From the NCBI GenBank assembly GCA_010356995.1, contig ML996688.1, positions 1,710,579 through 1,774,578 of the forward strand: DNA of 64,000 nt, written 5' to 3'. Numbering within the stretch: the first letter of the stretch is position 1; every line of letters starts with the position of its first letter. Of the stretch, positions 8,490 through 31,252 are shown piece after piece. This DNA is from Trichodelitschia bisporula (taxonomy: Eukaryota). Both the position numbers and the translations under genes were made by a program. Under the pieces are notes generated by a model that was not told the DNA's origin, ran no database searches, and saw nothing but the letters and a program-made list of their open reading frames with translations.

Positions 8490-11400
8490 TTACTCAAACA
8501 CATCATTACGATCAACCCAAATGTCCTCCAGCTCAGCAAAGTTCTGGAAGTGCAACGGCCGGTGCTGATCGTCATAGAAGCGCAGCGGCGTATCAATCTT
8601 GACGTAGATCGGCTTCTTCTCCACACTGCCAAAGTTGCTCCCCATGAAGCTGTAGTTCCACACATTGCTCTCCGGCACCAGGAAGAACCCGCGCACCTTG
8701 TCGCTCAGAAGCAACTGACACTTCTCGCCAAAGGCCGTCGAAAAGCCCGCCGGCTGGTCCGACGTCAAGTCACGGTTGTCGGCACCCCACTTGTAGCCAG
8801 CGGGGGTCAGTGCCCAGGCCGCCAACGACACGGACCCAGGCGTGAACGACACAGTCATCGTCACTGTCTTCTTATCCCAGCTCGAGTGAGCGTTCATCAA
8901 GCGAGCGTGCTGGGTCACGTCCATGGCGGTCATGTAGCGCGGCTCGTTGCCCGACACGGTGTGGATAATACCAAGTGGCTCCAGCTTGTCGAGATACTCG
9001 TGCTGCGGCAGCTGGTGCGGAAGCTGCACGTCGCGCGTGTTGCCAACCTGGGGAATCATCACAATGGTGTGGATCTCCTTGACCTGGTCGTTGTCCGGCG
9101 GCGACGAGCCGTACAAGTAGCCGGCGACTTGGACGCGTAGATCTGCGATGGTGACGAAGCGCTTCAGTACATTCTTTGGCATGATGTATGTGTAGTGTTC
9201 ATCCTCGTTGATGTCCTCCGATGAAATGTAGATATTGTTGGCCCGAGTCCGCAGGTTCGAGGTGGCGATGGCACGCGTCCGCCACTCAGTCTTCGAGGCG
9301 AAGGTCTGCTGCTCGTACTGCGATGTCGTGGTGACAATGATCTCTTCACCGTGGGCGTTCATGGTCTTAGTCGTCACAGCGGTGAGCTGCTGCTGCTCTT
9401 GCTGCTGCTTTTCGATCTCGGCTGCCTGCTGGCGCTGCAAGGACGGAGCGCTGATTTCCATACCGAGGATGATGTCACGCACCTCGCTGCTCGTCAAGCT
9501 GGACGTGTTCACATTGTTCTTCTTCCCGTAGTCATTCAGGATGAGATCGCGCAACTGGACTTCAACCTTGATCCAATCTTCGTCCGACAGCGTCGGCCAG
9601 ATATGATGCTCCTGCGTTATGACCGTCTTGTCCGGACGCAAAATCAGCTTGGTCTTGTCGATATTAACATGCAGCGCGCGCAGGATGAGAATCAAGCGCG
9701 AGAAGGCAGTGTACGACGAGATTGTCTTCAACCACTCGTCATACAGGTTGAAGAGCACCATCTGCGGCTCCGTGGCGCGGAGGATCAAGTCACCAAGCTT
9801 CTCCACCTTCATCGCCGCTTGGAATGGAAGCTGGAGCTCAGAAGCACGGATCGAGATGTTGGGGAAGTCGAGCAAATGGACCTCCAAGGGATCGAGGAGA
9901 CCCTTGCGAGTGACGATGAGCTGCTTCGGCTGCTCTTCCACGGGCAACGACCGAATGAGAGCTGCCACTTCTTCTGCCGTCTTCCATTTGGCCAGCTGCC
10001 CAAGACGCTTCTGGCCAGCCCACACACTGGTGTGGATGATCTTAAGGAACAGCTGCCCAGTGCGCGGGTTGAAGATAAAAATGGCACCGTTGATGGGCTT
10101 TGTTGTGAGATTGCCTTCGAACGTCTTGTGAATGGTGACCCGGTACACATTGGTGTCGTCGATGAAGAGCTGGATCTGGTTGCTGAAGAGTTCAGAGTAG
10201 TTCTGGGAGTTTAGGAACTCCTGGTTGCTCTCCGAGGCATACAGCTGCAGACCCTTCCGGATGCGCTCGCGCAAGACGTAAAGTGCCGGATTGGCCTTCA
10301 TAATCTTGGCCATTGCTTGCTGGATAAGCTGCTTCAGACCGGGGAAGTACATGCCATATGCAGAGTACAGATTGTACGCGAGATCGATACCAATCATTAA
10401 ACCAGTACCCGAGGGATAGATGCTCATGCTGTCAGTGGTGTAGTCCATGTACTTCGCGCGAATGTAGCGTTCAATGTCGTGGGAATCGTAATCGCCGTAC
10501 CGAAGCTGAACATCAATCCAGAACTTGTTGGTCGTCGTGGAGCTGATAACATCCTTGGTATCGTAGAGCATGGATGGATTGGAGACGCTCCACTTATGGC
10601 TTGCAAACAGAAGAACATCCGCGCAGGAGCTGTTCATCTTGTAGGATTTACGAGGATGAATCGTCTCCTTCTGGACAGTCTCGATGCCAAGTGCTTCGAG
10701 TTCCTGGTCGAAGACCTGACACAAGTCCATCACGACAGACTCGTGAATCTTCTGCCATAAATGGGCGCGGAAGATCTGGATGAGTGAAATCTTCAAGGTT
10801 GGAATCTTGCCATGCAAGAAGATACCCGTCAGATCCAACTGGACCTGGAAACCAACGTAAACATTGGCGCGATTGATGGTCGGCGACCACCAGAGGGTGA
10901 ATCGACGGTTCGGAATCTGGTTGAGACCGGACCGCTGGGCATTAGTGAGCTTCTTGAACTTCATGGATTCCTCAAAGCCACTGGCTTTCTCCCAGAAGAG
11001 GCCTTCCCAAGACGGGAATCCAGTCGCCTTAAACAGGGTATGCTCCAGGATGGTTTCAACACCACCAAGGGCCTGAATCACATCGGTACGGTAGGCATTC
11101 AGGTTCCACAGCTTGCCGTCATGCCGCTGGCTAGTCCACCAGAAAGGATTGCTCTTCATGTGCTGATAGATCTTGAACTCCGTCCGTGCACGGAAGCCCT
11201 TGTCGAAGCTCAAGGTGCTGCGGTCCTTCTGGAAGAGGGTGTTGATACGAGGCAGGCCACGATCCCAGCTGTCTTCCAGGTCCTCAAGTGTCAGGCGGCG
11301 GTTCTGCTGTTGAGCTTCCAGGCGCTTCTGCGAGTACTCCGTCCAGACACGCTGGGAATCAATGAACTCAGACTCCCACGGGATGATGTACCGGAAGATG

Positions 11401-14400
11401 TTGGGAATCAGCGTCTCCTCATCGTGCGTCATACCGGCCCGGTAATGCGTTACGCCGGTATCGGTCTGCTTGGACCAGCGTTTGTCGCTGGCGGGGATAA
11501 GAATATGTGAACCTGAGATCATGCCCAATCCACCCAGCTCCTTAGGTGTATAGAAGACGGCGGGAGGGAAACGGGAAGGCATCTTAGAATTCAACCCAAT
11601 CTTAACGCGCGTCTGGATCTTCGTTTCGCACTTGACAATCGTGTCGAGCAGGTTGACGGTCGACACCGCAGCCTCGCGATAGTATGTGAACAAGGCGATG
11701 AGCGTCGTGTTCCACTTGTTCGCAATCTTGGTGAAGGTCGTCGACCCAGATGACATTAGAATTTGGCGAATCCGGTTGTTGAACGCCTGAATATGCTCTT
11801 CCGTGACTTGCAAGAAGGCATGAGCTGTGCGCTCCTTGGTGGCATTGTCGACGAGTGCCCAAACGCTGTCCTTGGTGGGGAATTCCTCATTCATGTTCCG
11901 GATCTTCGGCAGGATACGCACTTCGAAACCGCACATGGAGAACAGCAGATTCGGGTTGTCGCGGCTATAGACGCTCGAGAAGGTGTCATCCCAATCGATC
12001 GTGGTCACTGAACGCGGCAGCCGGTTCTTCAGGTCCCAGAAGACGGCACGACCAAGATTGACATCGTGCCGCATCAAACGCATCCGAGAGTCGCGAGGCC
12101 AGCACTTCTTGTTGCGATACCCAATGACGTTCTCAAAATTGGGGTCCGGCTGCTCCGTCAGGAACCGCTGAATGAGATCACGAGACTCATCAGCCGTGAA
12201 GCGGAAGAAGACCCAGATGCGATCAATGTACCGAGTGTACAAGCGGATGGGATGCCTCGTCTCGGTGGCCTTGTCGCGGAACTGGAGGAAGTCATTCGGA
12301 CTCTGAGGCGGCCCAGCAATCTCGCTCGCGCGCTGGAGACCAAGCAACAGCAGATCAATGACCAGGCCGTAATACTGGAAGACAAAAGCCGAAAACTGAA
12401 GACCACGAATTAGACCATAGTTGTTGGTATGATTCATGTCTTTGTAGTTGAGTTGGACGTTGTTCTTCGAAGTGATGTAATCGGCCAAATTGTGCTCCAT
12501 GATCAGACGGAGTAAGCGGTTGAGTAAGGTGAGATCGATCTTCTCGTACACCTTCGACAGCTGCGTCTCGATCATGACGTTGCACTCTCCGTCCTCTGTC
12601 TCCCAAACTTGGTCCAAATTGTTGATACCCTGGGCCCACTTGTAGACGAGCAAAGGTGGCACTTCGGAATCGGAAGGCTTGATCCATGCGGGGAAAAGAT
12701 GGCGTTGATCGGCCTGATACCACAAGTACTGATCAAGATAGGCATCAGTAATCTTCTCGATCGGCTCGATGTCGTAGACGGGGTTGATAGTACTATAGTT
12801 GTCGTTCATGTCAATTCCCACTTCCTTGAATGCGCGTTGCGTAAGCAGGAAACGCTTGATCCGGGCCAAGGTCGTACCAGGCGAATCGTATGCCTGCTCA
12901 ATCAAAGCCAGTTCCTCGCGCTGGCTCTGGTTCAATCTGCCCTTAACGGAATACGCCTCGCGGAGGCGCTCAAGCGCGAGGATCAAGATCTTCGTATCGT
13001 GCTTGTAAGACACACTTGGGAATGGGATGGGCTGGAATTTGCGCGACTCGAGCCAGTGGACAGTGGTCGTGTAGATGGCAACAGCCTCTTCTGACGAGAT
13101 GTAAGGACCGTCCTTCATGTAGTTGTGCTGACGCTCCTGTTCAGCCTTGAGCCACAGCCGGGTAAGGCGACCCAAGTTCTTCTTTGCAACCGTCTTATCG
13201 ACCGTAGCGCCACGCCGAATGCGCTCCCGATTGTAGTGGGCAACCGAAATCCACCAATCCGCCTTGCTCTTGACATAACGAAGAATGATGTTCTCGATGG
13301 GCGCAGGCAGACCGGGCACCTTCCACGGAATGTTACTCTTCCAGCAACGCCAGGCCTCAGAGAGATGCTGGAGAACGGTGTTGACCTTGCTTTGCTTGAT
13401 GCCCTCAGGCATCATATCCATCAAGTCCGCCATCACGGAGGCGCGGAGCTCCAAGTCGAAATGCGACTCTACGCGCTGCTTGGTAACCGTCTTCGCAACG
13501 CCCTTGCTATGACGGCCCTCGAACTGCCTGGACAACAGGTTGCCCAGCCAGCGCTCAAGGAGCGGAATGATACCACGCATGAAGAAAAGCCACACACGCC
13601 AGGCCGGCGCCCAGAATCCGCAGCCCGGCCCCTTGCCCACGGGGCCTGAATTGAAACGGTAGTAGATCAAATGCTTCAGGTCCTTGCAGGACCGAATCTG
13701 GTGCATCAGCTTGTACTTGTACCGGTACATTCCAGTGAGCTGGCCGACGTGGTTGAAGGCGTAGAGAATTCCGTCTGCAAGCTGGAAGGCATCAATGTTC
13801 CCAAGGCGATACTGAACCTGAGCATCGACGATGAGCTTCGTAAGCCGAAGGATTTCACGCATGAGATGGAAAGCATTGCCAAATCGCGACTTCTTTCGTT
13901 CCTTCGTAGTCAAAGTCTTGATGGGCTTAAGGTTGAAGTTGTAGTCCAGATGGAGATACGTCAAGTTCTTGCGGTGAATCAACAGGTTCAACATGTTGAA
14001 GCCCTGCCGACAGACCTGAAGACCCGCTTCAACCCAGTCGATAGTAGTCTGTTGGAAGAACTTGGTCGACTTAAGAGAGCGCATTAGGCTCTGCTTGTTT
14101 TGCGCCTTTGGTGGACGCTGGTGCAGCTCATTCAGGACAAAGGTCTTCAGCAGTTTCTGGTAGGACACCCGGACCTTCACTGGCTGCCCTTGAGGAACGT
14201 GCTCCAAGTACCACTGCTTCACAAGAGGCACATCCTGTGCCCGAACCATGCGACCGGAGCGCTTGTCGAACGGATGGGGGGCCCACCAGAGAGTGATGGC
14301 GGATGAAGTCTCGGCGTTGTACAACTCTTCCTCGGCAAGGAACGGCTCAGCATTGGGTGGCAGCTCGAACTCATCGTCTTCGTCGTTGCCAGGCCCAAAA

Positions 14401-15560
14401 ATTTCGTCCTCATGGCTGATCGTCAGATTCTTGGGCGCAACCGACCGCGAAGAGATGGGATTAATGACGGGGTCGAAGTAGAAGGCCGGGAGATTGGGAT
14501 CGGTCCGGACGTAGACGACCTGAGGGTAAGAGTACCACGACAGCTTGACCATGCGAGGCAGCGAGTTGTATAGGAAGGGGAATGAAACGCGGTACTCCGT
14601 CCGGATGGGGGCCCGGAAGATGATGCGGTCGATGGCGTTGAATTCGCCGAAATCCTCATCGTTAGGATCGATATCCTTGAAAAGAGGTTCGAACCGGGGA
14701 CCTCCAGGGATTGCAACATTCAGGGCTTTCGCCGTGAAGAAGCTGTTGAGGTCGAACATGTGGAAATAATTCTTGTCGACGACATCGCTGAGCAGTTGCT
14801 CGCTAAGACGATACAGAGCCGCCATCTGCGGCAGCGTCAGATTCCAGGTCTTGTAGCTGGGCCCGTTGACGTGGGGTGTGTCCAAAAGAGGCCGGTGTTC
14901 GTAGAACCACTCGAAGACAGGCCCATCTTCATCTTCGTCGAGTTCCATTTGAATCGGCTCAAGGGGGTCCACATCTTCAATGTTCTCCGACCAGGAAAGC
15001 GGAGGCTCTTCATCGTCAAAGGGCGGGAAACGCATGCGCTTGAAGTGACGACGGTCGCTCTTCTCACGTCGCATAACCACCCACATCGTGGCCCACTGTG
15101 CGTGGAAGACAGGCTCGATGACGCGAGGGATCTCGTTGACAAGTGTAAGGCAGCCGTTGACGTGGTAGAGCACCTTAACCTCCCTAGTCGACTCCCAAGG
15201 CATCGGCATGTTCTCCAGGAGCTTGAGGACGGCATGCGGCATGAACTTCAAGGCTCCGAGATAGCTGCGCTTGTCGCTGCTGAACTTCTTCTGCGACACG
15301 TCGCCGATGTCCTTGACGATCTTACGCAGATGCTCCGGCGGCATATCGGCCTTCTGTGTCTCCACAAATCCAGCCCTGCGCTTCTCTCCAAAGCGCTGCC
15401 GCTGCGCGCGCAGCCACTCCTTCTTCTTCTGCGCAAACTTCATGATATGTGGGTCGGTCATAGGGCGGAAGCCCGGCGGCGGTGGAGGAGGAGGAGCCAT
15501 ACCAGGTGGAGGCGGAGGGGGGTTCCATCCCGGCGGCGGTGGAGGTTGATGCGACGCCAT
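8490..15560 (-). CDS. PRP8: Pre-mRNA splicing factor Prp8 (U5 snRNP), intronless and intein-less
   Basis: 2356-aa ORF with the canonical Prp8 sequence throughout ([45 protein letters not shown]-terminal MPN domain). Confidence 0.99.
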
Positions 15561-15979
15561 ATCGATGATGACAGAGGACGAGGCTCAAGTTGTCGCAGAA
15601 ACGCGCGTCAGGCGCGACTGAGGATGTGAGAACTCGCGATGCTCAATGCAGCGTTCCCCGAACGCAGGACGATAGCTTGGAGGGACCGTCGAGAAAGGAG
15701 TGAATGAGACAATACGATAATCCACAGCTTCACCAGTATTGAGGTGGATAAGTGATGGATGTCGCGTGTGGCAATGGGCGGACGTGAGTAGCTCGTCACG
15801 GCCTTGAGGTTTTCCCAGAAGGAGCGTGCACAGGCCATCCACTAAGGAAGGAGGAGGCGGCCGGAGGGCGGGTTTTACCGAAGGGCTTGGCAAGATTCGG
15901 CTCCCGCAGTCGGGCACAAGCACTTCCAAAATTGCATCGCGAACCTCCTCCGAACTAACCAACAGCACAACCGTTAACG

Positions 15980-26390: not shown

Positions 26391-27438
26391 AGGGGCGGGT
26401 ATTAGGAGTGGGTTTTGGTCGGGTAATCGGATGGGGCCGCGATAAGGGACGAGGCCGGGTTGTACATGCGAGGACGATATTCCGGCTCATCGGGCTATTC
26501 TGGGGAAACATTGGATATCCGAGTAAACGCGGGCCTTCAAGCCCGAGATGCTGTCGAAGCTACAATATGCTAAGCTTCCTTGCCGGGGAATCATGTGCGC
26601 TTCTTGATATTGCGGTACGCAAAATTGATGTTGCTAATTCCGTATTCCGTGGACCTAGATTAACGATCAGCATCCGCTCCAGTTCCTGGCGCCCGGAACA
26701 GTCCAGACGTCGCTCCTTGCCGGGCCGGAAGAGTCGAGCAATATATACACGATAAAGTGGAGATGCAAAGTCGTCGAGAGTGTGGAGTCTTAGTTCTGGA
26801 CTCGAAAAATAGCCACAAAGCCAAGCGCCACTCGAAACGGCGCGGCCCGCATCGACGCCCCACGCCTCAACACCAACGTCGCGCCATCATGGCAACCCGG
26901 CATACAACTCATGATGCCCGCGCTGCTCAGTCTGCGAACACAGCCTTTTCCTGTGCGAAACAACCCTCCGAGTAGAGCCTCTAGCAATAACCCCCGCCCC
27001 AGATCGCCATTTCCAACGCCAAATACTCGTCAATCCAACCACCAAGCCCGTCAATCCAACCCCAAAACCCCATAAACATCTCTCCCGTTTCAACGTCGCC
27101 AATCCTTCCCATTTCCCATAATATGTCCTACTCATATGCCTAGCTGTTACTACTCACTTTCCCCAGATCCCGCAGCAATATACGTGACGCACGGGCATCC
27201 AACCACTCAAAATACCTGTCAAATTTGATCTTGATTCATGCGTACTGCGCCCAGGGTGCACACTATATCTACACCACGAGCGCCAGACGCTAAAATAACG
27301 ACATCAACAATCACAGTTCCATTCTTTAGTTCAGCCTCACCGTTCTCAGCAGCCTCATTTGTTCCCGCAAGACTTCGTCTGTTTCTTCTTCAAACCTACA
27401 CACTTTTTCCATCCACCAGTCCCCGCCAAATAACCACC

Positions 27439-27807
27439 ATGCGCTTCATCGCCATTCTCGCTCTCCTTCCCCTCATGGCTTACGCCCTCCCCAACGTCCG
27501 TCCCCTCCCTCCCCTCCAAACCCCCATAAAACTAACACGCCCCCAGCCCACTCAAACCCCCCAAATCGGCGCCGCCTTCGCCTGCACCACGCACTCCGAC
27601 TGCGCCGTCAAAAACCGTCCCAACTGCTGCGGCCATCAAGACGTATGCGCGCACCAGTCCGCCGTTTTCAGCGAGAACCCGAACTGCGCGGGCAGGATGT
27701 CTGTGTGCGGTTTCGTGAAGATCGCGGCGTGTGAATGCCGGAATGGGGCGTGTGCGGCGGCAAGGCCGGTGATGGGGAGTGCGGGAGGGAGTGAGAGTCC
27801 AGTGTAG
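27439..27807 (+). CDS. Small secreted cysteine-rich protein (10 Cys), 1 intron
   Basis: MRFIAILALLPLMAYALP signal peptide, a 51-nt intron 27496-27546 (GTCCGT..CTAAC..CAG), then CTTHSDCAVKNRPNCCGHQDVC..C..SVCGF..CECRNGAC. Confidence 0.85.
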   Translation: MRFIAILALLPLMAYALPNVRPLPPLQTPIKLTRPQPTQTPQIGAAFACTTHSDCAVKNRPNCCGHQDVCAHQSAVFSENPNCAGRMSVCGFVKIAACECRNGACAAARPVMGSAGGSESPV

Positions 27808-28077
27808 GGGGGATTATGGCGAGATATTGAGGTTCGACGGCGTGGCTGAGGGGGGAGATATACTGTAGGATCATCGCATTTTTGCTAGCTGAACGGCATG
27901 ACGTGCCTTTTTCCATACCAGTCCCCGTCCGCACGAACCTGGACAGCCACAGCTACCGCTACGCCTGGACGCTCGCCCCTTCCCTCCTCCACTGTCTCCG
28001 GTTTGCCCCTTCCCCCCTTACAAGCCCACACTCTCACCTCTCTATATGCCGGCCGCTTTCATCTCCTTCCATCAAGC

Positions 28078-28149
28078 AGCCGGATGGCGCAACAGAGGCT
28101 CGCCGCGCTCACTCCTCGGAGGTCGTTGGATCAACACCAACTTCGGCTA
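28078..28149 (+). tRNA. Initiator-tRNA-derived gene, copy 1, anticodon CAC (probably a pseudogene)
   Basis: 72-nt cloverleaf: acceptor AGCCGGA/TTCGGCT, anticodon arm CCGCG-CTCACTC-CTCGG, T arm GTTGG-ATCAACA-CCAAC, followed by a T6 terminator. The D loop and B box are degraded. Confidence 0.7.
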
Positions 28150-28408
28150 TATTTTTTGGCCCTTTTTGGGCTTTTCGGGCCTTTTCTTTGGGCACCGAGG
28201 ATACTGGAAGTTGGGACGGGCAGACGATAGATGAGATCGGGGGAGGTAGTGTAGAATCGCTTTTCGTGCTGCTGAGCAGCGACATGTGTGATGCTATGTC
28301 GGTCGCCGTCCACACCTGCACGTACCCGAGCAGCCACGCCCACAGCCACACCGCCTCCCCCTTTCGAAACTCCGCAGTTTGCCCTTCGTTCAATTCCCTC
28401 CTATCAAT

Positions 28409-28481
28409 AGTTGTTGTGGCGTAGCGGAAGCGTAGCGGGTTCATAACCCGGGGGACGGTGGATCAAAACCACCTTCAGCCC
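28409..28481 (+). tRNA. Initiator tRNA-Met(CAT)-like gene, copy 2, acceptor stem disrupted (pseudogene-like)
   Basis: TGGCGTAGCGGAAGCG D arm, CGGG-TTCATAA-CCCG anticodon arm with the initiator GGG/CCC pairs, GGTGG-ATCAAAA-CCACC T arm and a T5 terminator. Confidence 0.75.
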
Positions 28482-28756
28482 TTTTTGGAGTCTTTTAGAC
28501 TTTTCTTTGGAGTGTCGAGAATGTTTTGGGCTGGAATGGACGGGCGGTAGGCTGGACTGGAGGGGGCGTACTGAAGGATACCGCTTTTTTGACAGTTGAA
28601 GGGCGTGATGTGCCGGTTTTTATGCCAGTCTTCCACACCCGCCACTCATTCCTTCCCCCGTTCTTCCCTCCTTCCCGCCAGCACTCCCCCGCCACCCCCA
28701 CAAGGCCACACTCTCGGTCTTTACACACCGACGGCTTCAATCACTCCCCATCAAGC

Positions 28757-28828
28757 AGCTGAATTGTGCAGCGGAAGCGCGCCCAGCTCACACCTGGGAG
28801 GACGGTGGATCGAAACCACCTTTGGCTA
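28757..28828 (+). tRNA. Initiator-tRNA-derived gene, copy 3, intact cloverleaf with CAC anticodon
   Basis: AGCTGAA/TTTGGCT acceptor (A1:U72), GTGC-AGCGGAA-GCGC D arm, CCCAG-CTCACAC-CTGGG anticodon arm, GGTGG-ATCGAAA-CCACC initiator-type T arm, discriminator A and a T6 terminator. Confidence 0.85.
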
Positions 28829-29099
28829 GCTTTTTTGGAGACTTTCGGGGTTTTCTTTGAGTGCGGAGGCTGTTTGGAGTTGGAATGGGTGTAGATGGGG
28901 CTGGGCTGTGTCGGAGAGCGATGGGTGGTGGAGGAATTGCGTGGGAGGGTGGGTTAAGGGTGGACTAGGATGCAGGGTCAGAGGTGGAAGAATATTTACA
29001 GTCCCTGACAATACGGTGCCTTGACGATATGCACGGCCGTATCTCAGGAAACCTTAATCCCATCAGCAAAGCCAGCAAGACCATCGAATCACTCACCCG

Positions 29100-30011
29100 C
29101 TAAACAACCCACACCCCCCTCGCCTTAACACAAACCGTCCCATCCAACCTCTCCGCCGCCCCCTCGACAACATACTCCCTCCCCCCCTTAACCACCTCCT
29201 CCGCCTTCCCGCCCCAAAACCAACCAAACCAGCCCCGTCCCACCTTCTCCGTAAGATCCTTCTCCCTCTCCAACCCCAGGTCCACGCTCCCCTTCCCGTT
29301 CTCCCCTCCCTCCCCGGGCGGCAGGACCTTAAACCGCAACGCATAAAAATCCCTCGCATTCTTCGGCTTCACATACGTAAGCCCCAGATGCTTCGGTTCC
29401 GGCGGCGTGTCCCCAAGGAACGTCTCCGCTTCCCTCCCTTCCTTACGGCCCTGAACCCACTGCACCCCCCTGCCCATCCCCTCCACCAAAACCGTCGCAA
29501 CGCCCCCGCCATGCGCAAGGCCAGGCCACCCGCTCATCCCCCCGCCCACCCAAAACACCACAACGCCCTCCCCGCGCTCCCCAGACCAGAATACCCGTCG
29601 CTCGCCCAACCCCGCGACACCGGCTAGCGTCTCGCCGACTAAGCGTCCCGCGCTGCTCCAGGGCACGGTGAGCTCTTCCCATCGGCCTTCGGCCTCTTCG
29701 GCACGCAGGCGCTGGACGAAGGGCAGGCTGTCGAGGCGCGTGTGCAGCTCTGCGAGGTCGGCTAGGTGTTGTGGTGTGCCAGGCAGAGCGAGAGGCGAGG
29801 GGCGGATGATGCGCGAGGCGATGGTCCCAGATGTCCAGCCTAGGCTGAGGAAGAGGGCTGCGTAGGCGAGGGGGCGGAGGAGGGAGCGGCGGGGTTTGGG
29901 TGGAGGGGAAATCGGTGCGGTGGCTGAGGTTGAGGTCGGGCGGTGGAGACGCGGGTGAGATTTGAGAGGGCGGAGGAGGGTGGGAGTGTGGGGACGTAGT
30001 CGTGGTGGCAT
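29100..30011 (-). CDS. Mitochondrial hotdog-fold thioesterase family protein (Fmp10-like)
   Basis: Arg-rich presequence MPPRLRP.., one TM segment, LVGETLAG and the PaaI-type motif SGWPGLAHGGGVATVL. Confidence 0.75.
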   Translation of the reverse strand: MPPRLRPHTPTLLRPLKSHPRLHRPTSTSATAPISPPPKPRRSLLRPLAYAALFLSLGWTSGTIASRIIRPSPLALPGTPQHLADLAELHTRLDSLPFVQRLRAEEAEGRWEELTVPWSSAGRLVGETLAGVAGLGERRVFWSGERGEGVVVFWVGGGMSGWPGLAHGGGVATVLVEGMGRGVQWVQGRKEGREAETFLGDTPPEPKHLGLTYVKPKNARDFYALRFKVLPPGEGGENGKGSVDLGLEREKDLTEKVGRGWFGWFWGGKAEEVVKGGREYVVEGAAERLDGTVCVKARGVWVV

Positions 30012-31252
30012 TGTGGTGGTTATGGTTGTGGTTGTGGTTTGGATTGTGATGCCGAGGGCCGTCAATGTCGTGAAGTCGTCGAGAGAGTGGTGAGGCAACA
30101 AGGCTGCAGTGCCAAGATATATAATCACGTGACAGAAAGGTTGGAAATGTAGCTACTTGCTTAATTGACTTCCATTGTCTTCACCTTAACATCCTGAATC
30201 TCATTCCTGCTCTCCATACTTGCCATGGACGAGAAGATTGAGTTCAGAACGGTGTGGCTGGACTAAAGTTTAGGTGTGGCCCCGCTTCCGTTGGGCGGCG
30301 GCGGTTAGCGTAAGCGCCATTAGCCTTGGCTATGACGTCGATTAAAATGAGAGTGAGGGGTTTGAAACAAAGAGCGACTTGGGGGAAATTGTTTTGGATA
30401 GAAGGAGCTATGAGAAGTGCCAGTTCATTCCAGAAAGGAAGGCCTTGCGTCGATCGTGACTGCTTTTGGGCGCGGCCTAATTCGCGTGTGACTACTTTGG
30501 GGATGCTCATGTGGCAGGATGAGGTTGCTTTGGGCACGAGTTCTCATGCGGGTTGGGAGGGGCTGGTGCTGAGAGAGAGGGTCCGGAAAAACGGCGCGGA
30601 ATCAAGCTTTTCGCACCAAGTGGGTGGGATGCGTTGTTTTCGACGATACGTCCAGTTGCCCCTCACTCACCGTCCGAATTTGGCGATGCATGTCTGAAGT
30701 TCCAACTTCAGGGATCACAGAAAGGGTAATGCGTGGCTGAGTTCCAACTTCGAAATCCAAGCGGCGCGATGCATGTCTCAGTTCCAACTTCAGGTTCCTG
30801 GAAGTCGGTGAATTCCCACAAACTAGGCCAATGGCCGGTGCTGAGCCACAAGTCTCAATCCCAGAAGGCGATGGACCCTCATGAACCAGACCGCAGACCG
30901 CTGTCGACGAACCACGCATCTCAATCCCTCCGCAGTGGAGAGATATCGCAAGCCGTGCAACTGACCCACCGGTCCGGTCCGTCCAATCCATAGACAGGAA
31001 GAAGTAAACATCGAAACATGGTCAAATCACAGTGCAAAAGCTTCAGCAGGTCATTCATCCATTCTCTAGACACATCTAGGACGCGCTCCCTCCTCCACCA
31101 TGATTAACCCATCGCATCGCAAAACACCGCACGACAGGCAGAAAAACGCAGCAGGCATCATCCACAACAAAACAAGGGTATCGAATAGCACCACCTCTCT
31201 CATCCCTTCGTCTCCTCAATCAAACGCCTATCGCTACACCCGTCTCATCAGC

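Follow-up and report, generated by a model that had tools for sequence, protein, structure and literature searches.

An initiator-type tRNA gene with the valine anticodon CAC in a tandem triplet of Trichodelitschia bisporula: a possible alloacceptor shift from methionine to valine

The window analyzed here is a 64,000-nucleotide stretch of the Trichodelitschia bisporula assembly GCA_010356995.1 (contig ML996688.1, positions 1,710,579 to 1,774,578 of the forward strand); all coordinates below count from its first nucleotide. It encodes Prp8, a Bre1-type ligase, a forkhead protein, and a TRP-domain membrane protein; Prp8 occupies one uninterrupted 2364-codon frame (8490–15584, minus strand). The TRP-domain protein has its best match in Trichodelitschia bisporula (Dothideomycetes; 97% identity), and its next relatives beyond that species are ~50% identical; the fungus is without a close sequenced relative. 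The locus described here is located between two convergent genes. The gene on the plus strand (27439–27807) encodes a small cysteine-rich protein with a predicted signal-peptide-like start and contains a 51-nt GT..AG intron (27496–27546). The gene on the minus strand (29051–30152) contains an ORF (29100–30152) that has no Pfam match and a 44-nt intron (29051–29094; CT..AC on the plus strand); this intron is downstream of the in-frame stop codon (29100–29102) and may be in the 3′ UTR.

We compared four sequencing runs of the same organism (X1–X4, representing at most two samples) over positions 26500–31000; X1 and X2 are DNA, and we take X3 and X4, whose contigs lack the introns, to be RNA. One RNA contig (X4, record 24) extends from 26861 to 29026 and skips 27496–27546, and a second (X3, record 18) extends from 27989 to 30522 and skips 29051–29094; both cross the three tRNA-like units described below. 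Contigs of both neighboring genes therefore span the triplet, that is, the units are located in transcribed 3′ regions. Across the triplet, ~1 kb (27989–29026) is common to the RNA contigs of both convergent genes. An A>C difference at 28637 in one X4 contig is the sole variant in these 4.5 kb across the four runs.

In the window ARAGORN identifies a single tRNA gene, a tRNA-Val with the anticodon CAC (28757–28828, plus strand; unit 3). The Rfam tRNA model RF00005 matches this interval over its entire length (model positions 1–71 of 71) with 46.9 bits (gathering score, 29; E for the whole window, 7.1e-07). The 72-nt tRNA has an initiator-type body in which 21 of 21 stem pairs are formed, three of them as G·U (4:69, 5:68, and 11:24). 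The acceptor stem is AGCTGAA/TTTGGCT with discriminator A, the D stem (GTGC/GCGC) closes a 7-nt D loop (AGCGGAA), the anticodon stem (CCCAG/CTGGG) closes the loop CTCACAC (anticodon, 28789–28791), and the variable region AGGAC precedes a T stem (GGTGG/CCACC) with the T loop ATCGAAA. The gene has a 9-nt leader, CCATCAAGC (28748–28756), and a trailer that consists of GC and a T6 run resembling a Pol III terminator (28829–28836; TTTTTT at 28831–28836). These results agree with a preliminary description of this DNA, which proposed a 72-nt cloverleaf with all stems paired and a T6 terminator; its near-consensus A box stands in part, because T9 and T11, in what we take to be the A-box region, depart from the G9 and C11 of both sister units. 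The acceptor stem is weak, with two G·U and three A:U pairs among seven. The cloverleaf (−22.8 kcal/mol) nearly coincides with the minimum-energy fold (−22.9 kcal/mol), and this energy is not beyond chance (z = −0.44; 65 of 200 shuffled sequences fold as well or better); the tRNA status of unit 3 is therefore based on the covariance model and on the paralogues described below, not on folding energy.

Unit 3 combines features of different tRNA classes. Like a working initiator, it has A1:U72, C3:G70, A54, and A60, and G31:C39 and A73 are also kept; however, its anticodon is CAC instead of CAU, and the three successive G:C pairs of the initiator anticodon stem (29:41, 30:40, and 31:39) are C:G, A:T, and G:C, that is, C29:G41 and A30:U40 stand in place of G:C pairs. 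The loop CTCACAC and the discriminator A provide the anticodon and identity residues of a tRNA-Val(CAC), that is, CAC together with A35, C36, C38, and A73; a canonical elongator tRNA-Val, however, has T54 and a Val-type body, and unit 3 has A54/A60 and the initiator body. The broken stems, lost invariant bases, and sub-threshold scores that characterize tRNA pseudogenes are found in units 1 and 2 and not in unit 3. A body and an anticodon from different acceptor families within an intact structure, as found in unit 3, are the mark of a remoulded tRNA, that is, of an alloacceptor anticodon shift.

Unit 3 is the last of three initiator-derived units that form a tandem triplet on the plus strand (28012–28889), an arrangement that was not part of the preliminary description. 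Each unit consists of a ~65-nt leader, a tRNA, and a ~60-nt trailer, and the tRNA starts are spaced by ~331 and 348 bp. The region of unit 3 (28692–28889) is 69% identical to 28012–28220 (over 209 positions) and 71% identical to 28389–28539 (over 155 positions). In the flanks, the identities are 68% (units 1 and 3), 61% (units 2 and 3), and 57% (units 1 and 2); with flanks that are only 57–68% identical, the array is old. Unit 1 (28078–28149, plus strand) is a decayed sister with CAC and C38 in which two of 21 pairs are broken (11:24 and 30:40); it has A18 for G18, T37 for A37, and the T loop ATCAACA, together with C4:G69 and a two-sided change of its own at 50:64 (to T:A), and it has no Rfam match at E ≤ 10. 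Unit 2 (28409–28481, plus strand) is a decayed initiator pseudogene that has kept CAT and the GGG/CCC anticodon-stem strands; its 5′ acceptor strand contains a 1-nt insertion, three or more of its 21 pairs are broken, its T loop is ATCAAAA, and its discriminator is C; its Rfam match is confined to the core (28417–28473; 27.7 bits, under the cutoff of 29). C36, C38, T40, and G69 are common to units 1 and 3, against unit 2 and the CAT genes described next; the anticodon shift therefore predates the (old) duplication that separated units 1 and 3. A short GC hairpin with a T run (of the type GGCNTGANGTGCC TTTT) occurs three times around the units (27895–27911, 28169–28185, and 28602–28618), and the copy at 28602 is flagged as terminator-like; a bacterial promoter/terminator scan is irrelevant for a Pol III gene.

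The contigs from the sequencing runs also provide a view of the relatives of unit 3 elsewhere in the genome. Single-copy contigs of the DNA runs cover the locus without a single other letter, and the unit 3 tRNA is identical letter for letter across all four runs. Short unitigs of high depth also match the tRNA, with depths of 2746 (X1, record 7; single-copy depth 387) and of 1594 and 1617 (X2, records 13 and 14; single-copy depth 186); the ratio of unitig depth to single-copy depth corresponds to an initiator-body family of ~7–9 copies with a CAT anticodon. These unitigs differ from unit 3 by four letters in 28757–28790 and by six in 28773–28819. Past 28790 they run on as TAACCCGGAGGA, that is, with CAT, A37, A38, and the 3′ stem strand CCCGG; past 28819 they run on as TTTCAGCTA, that is, with an acceptor 3′ strand that is fully Watson–Crick to AGCTGAA and with discriminator A. 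The tRNA is also entered, from either side, by longer contigs whose flanks are unrelated; their matches start at 28748 and extend to 28836. Because the unitigs combine the same body with CAT, unit 3 is a diverged paralogue of a multi-copy initiator-type tRNA-Met gene of this genome, and the initiator-derived body proposed in the preliminary description thus has its source in the organism's own genes. Among the contig records listed, no other spans the CAC anticodon arm (28784–28796).

The nonamer CCATCAAGC is found both at 28748–28756 and at 28069–28077, that is, it is identical upstream of units 3 and 1. The contigs of the other initiator copies match from 28748, and their flanks differ further out; the nonamer could be a start or leader motif that the initiator genes of this fungus conserve. 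We also considered whether the unit might be the head of a SINE or other dispersed repeat; this candidate was rejected, because a BLAST comparison of the unit with the window reveals the two tandem siblings only and because the high-depth unitigs carry the CAT loop, that is, they are ordinary initiator genes.

The CAT-family sequence was reconstructed from contig tables, in which positions 36–41 and 65–69 come from loose contig ends and positions 29 and 30 from contigs clipped exactly there together with pairing; the differences at positions 9 and 11 were assigned by parsimony with units 1 and 2. With this reconstruction, unit 3 differs from the CAT family at ~11 of 72 positions (9, 11, 29, 30, 36, 38, 40, 41, 65, 68, and 69), or at 10 if some family members have C65, as one RNA contig hints. 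All eight of the changes in stems preserve pairing. Four of them form two two-sided replacements in the anticodon stem (29:41, G:C to C:G; 30:40, G:C to A:T), in accord with the proposal in the preliminary description that both strands of this stem had changed together; the others are single changes (C11 to T, giving T·G; T65 to C, giving G:C; C68 to T, giving G·T; and A69 to G, giving T·G). None of the 14 bases of the D and T loops has changed. In simulations (200,000 trials for each kappa), 11 random substitutions keep 21 of 21 pairs in 0.11%, 0.32%, 0.88%, and 1.9% of the trials for kappa values of 1, 2, 4, and 8, respectively; the observed changes are seven transitions and four transversions. 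Intact pairing in 0.1–1.9% of trials by chance supports the view, also advanced in that description, that unit 3 is not the product of random decay.

The sibling units are a local picture of decay, that is, a built-in neutral control: the Rfam scores of units 1, 2, and 3 are none, 27.7 bits, and 46.9 bits, respectively. When sites are polarised with unit 2, changes specific to unit 3 are found at six of 72 positions in the tRNA and at 12 of ~138 in the flanks; thus, the constraint on unit 3 is visible in the pattern of change, not in its rate. The two-sided change at 50:64 and the pair C4:G69 of unit 1 imply that the CAC lineage was under structural constraint before unit 1 died. The states in the anticodon arm can also be ordered: positions 36, 38, and 40 changed first (shared with unit 1), and positions 29, 41, and 30 followed, in unit 3 alone; these stepwise states argue against a single conversion patch. 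A swap of the whole anticodon arm from a Val gene is likewise unlikely, because unit 1 is an intermediate in which 36, 38, and 40 are changed and 29 and 41 are not. RIP-type mutation was rejected as the cause of the differences, the transition:transversion counts between units being just 33:29, 41:31, and 52:29 in a region with 60% GC. Taken together, the pattern of change in unit 3 points to structural selection.

Starting from what is directly observed (initiator descent, a tandem triplet, the CAC anticodon common to units 1 and 3, and change that preserves structure), our preferred reading is that unit 3 represents an alloacceptor shift from initiator tRNA-Met to tRNA-Val(CAC), is structurally selected, and is probably an ordinary decoder of GUG; we assign this reading a probability of roughly 45%. 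In this reading, a copy of the organism's own initiator tRNA-Met gene would have acquired the anticodon CAC in place of CAU, along with C38 in place of A38 and U40 in place of C40, the CAC copy would then have been duplicated in tandem, and one descendant (unit 3) would have been held to a working cloverleaf as its siblings decayed. MetRS and ValRS are expected to read mainly the anticodon, with A73 common to the tRNAs of both; a one-letter change in the anticodon should thus switch codon reading from AUG to GUG and charging from Met to Val together. With this joint switch the genetic code would not be violated, and unit 3 would serve as an extra GUG-decoding tRNA-Val. The drift, with compensation, of two of the three initiator G:C anticodon-stem pairs suggests release from an initiator-specific constraint. 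In four long frames of the window, valine is encoded 290 times, 96 of them (33%) by GUG; a GUG-reading tRNA would therefore be in demand.

What is reported about valine identity makes charging of unit 3 with valine plausible. In eukaryotes, valine identity depends strongly on A35 and A73; these two are the elements used by the yeast enzyme, and ValRS from wheat germ relies on A35, C36, and C38 (PMC9976931). The preliminary description had listed A35, C36, C38, and A73 as elements for yeast ValRS; all four are published, but C36 and C38 come from the wheat-germ enzyme. In Escherichia coli, the Met and Val anticodons suffice to separate the two identities (PMC9976931), and an initiator tRNA with a valine anticodon receives valine (bioRxiv 10.1101/2021.05.25.445580). 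Because unit 3 has A35, C36, C38, and A73, valine charging and GUG reading would be naturally expected.

Several features count against this assignment. A G·U at the third or fourth acceptor pair impairs E. coli ValRS (PMC9976931), and unit 3 has U4·G69; C29:G41, which unit 3 also carries, is a reported negative element for the same enzyme (bioRxiv 10.1101/2021.05.25.445580). The sister CAC copy (unit 1) was left to decay, the acceptor stem and the T9/T11 of the A-box region are weak points of the gene, and A1:U72, A54, and A60, which disfavor elongation in other systems, are all kept; the D and T arms of unit 3 could also have been refreshed by gene conversion from the initiator family, without selection. 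In fungi, the block to eEF1A is reported to be the ribose modification of position 64 by Rit1 (PMC11301382, PMC7954030). Position 64 is C in unit 3 and, as reconstructed from the contigs, in the CAT family; the Rit1 rule does not carry over simply to unit 3. From the drift of the two anticodon-stem pairs, we favor an elongator role for unit 3 over a role in initiation.

The serious rival to this reading, with a substantial chance of being correct, is that unit 3 is a foldable relic, as non-functional as units 1 and 2, in which CAC is merely one mutation and conversion has perhaps helped to maintain the fold. Two of the three units in the array are clearly dead, the substitution rate of unit 3 resembles that of its flanks, its A-box region is altered at 9 and 11, its acceptor stem is weak, and RNA contigs pass straight through it within longer transcripts; in addition, unit 3 was singled out from a very large scan because it is foldable, so ascertainment bias would favor such a relic. 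A relic does not, however, readily account for eight paired stem changes in eight, with two of the pairs changed on both sides, at chance frequencies of 0.1–1.9%, or for conserved loop bases that are all untouched. Conversion would have to involve two tracts that spare the anticodon arm, and the compensated pairs in that arm would be left unexplained; the stepwise path, in which the changes at 36, 38, and 40 shared with unit 1 preceded those at 29, 41, and 30, also argues against a single accident. A non-decoding role, in which the unit would be a tRNA-like element that provides an RNase P/Z processing signal or a source of small RNAs in the overlapping convergent 3′ ends, is improbable. It would fit the spliced RNA contigs of both neighbors that cross all three units, and also the presence of three tRNA-like units in sense orientation downstream of the gene for the small cysteine-rich protein; however, the contigs are silent on strand, level, ends, cleavage, and mature tRNA, units 1 and 2 were not kept, and such an element has no need of a Val-type loop, yet positions 36 and 38 moved toward Val and position 37 stayed A.

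We consider it very improbable that unit 3 is a valine-charged initiator that eIF2 would take to the P site, with some proteins then starting at GUG with valine. Unit 3 does keep A1:U72, C3:G70, G31:C39, A54, and A60, which are tied to the function of eIF2 and the pre-initiation complex (Dong et al. 2014, PMC3950347); the same source reports that yeast survives Watson–Crick replacements at 29:41 and 30:40, whose effects are weak, and in bacteria, initiators engineered to carry valine anticodons begin proteins with valine (bioRxiv 10.1101/2021.05.25.445580). Nevertheless, of the three G:C pairs that the CAT family conserves, unit 3 has lost two, which fits release from the constraint on initiators. 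In addition, eIF2 is reported to recognize the methionine moiety.

Orthologues of the shifted gene were sought with sequence patterns. The strict pattern (initiator D arm, CTCAC, and initiator T arm) has no match in metagenome contigs, and a relaxed pattern has no match in viral contigs; both collections contain little fungal DNA. In the metagenome contigs, the relaxed pattern has one match, a tRNA-Val(CAC) with G1·U72 in a five-tRNA array (contig L001, 1980 nt), which is not an orthologue. The array is tight (1481–1938), with the order Met, Phe, Met, Arg, and Val(CAC); both Met genes are initiator-like, with A1:U72 and GGG/CCC anticodon stems, and in the Val(CAC) gene, an initiator-like D arm and the T loop ATCGAAA are combined with G1·U72. 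Beside this array is an ORF that, from its translation, is predicted to be RpiB-like and to contain a duplicated acidic repeat. In the literature searched, neither an initiator-to-Val shift in fungi nor this gene under its species name is described.

What is new here, as read from the sequences, is the paralogy of unit 3 with the CAT family, the tandem triplet, and the structure-preserving changes in the stems. Few RNAs are known to be as constrained as initiator tRNAs. If the shift is real, an initiator copy held by compensated changes in a fungus would be a natural experiment that bears on which initiator features block elongation and on how far tRNA genes can move from one family to another when identity is driven by the anticodon, as for Met and Val; it would possibly also bear on non-methionine initiation. 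If unit 3 were instead a valine-charged initiator, the fungus would start some proteins at GUG with valine and without methionine.

Unit 3 can be compared with several known systems. The main survey of anticodon shifts in nuclear genomes (Rogers and Griffiths-Jones 2014, PMC3923123) reports none with initiator tRNAs and includes no Pezizomycotina. Like the shifts in that survey, unit 3 is a duplicate gene with an anticodon substitution and, in our preferred reading, an identity switch by way of an anticodon-reading synthetase, sometimes accompanied in the surveyed cases by co-varying changes; unlike them, unit 3 is known from one organism. The only later case of an initiator shift that we found is in Drosophila simulans, where a shifted gene was re-annotated as an initiator gene with CAU changed to CGU, a single base (bioRxiv 10.1101/2020.07.24.220558). 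Both that gene and unit 3 are members of a nuclear initiator family with a non-Met anticodon. The D. simulans gene, however, is a single anticodon base away from its paralogues, whereas unit 3 has ~10 further changes, including two compensated pairs; the shift in unit 3 leads to Val, and it is old enough for two tandem copies with only 68% flank identity to have it in common.

With the eukaryotic initiator tRNA-Met (PMC3950347), unit 3 shares A1:U72, C3:G70, G31:C39, A54, A60, and the 7-nt D loop, as well as its paralogy with CAT genes; it differs in having CAC instead of CAU, C38, C:G for G29:C41, and A:U for G30:C40. The engineered E. coli initiator i-tRNA(AAC) likewise combines an initiator body with A35 and C36 (bioRxiv 10.1101/2021.05.25.445580; PMC11744186). 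The engineered initiators are bacterial, man-made molecules in which the three G:C pairs of the anticodon stem are retained; unit 3, in contrast, is natural and eukaryotic, and its anticodon stem has been remodelled.
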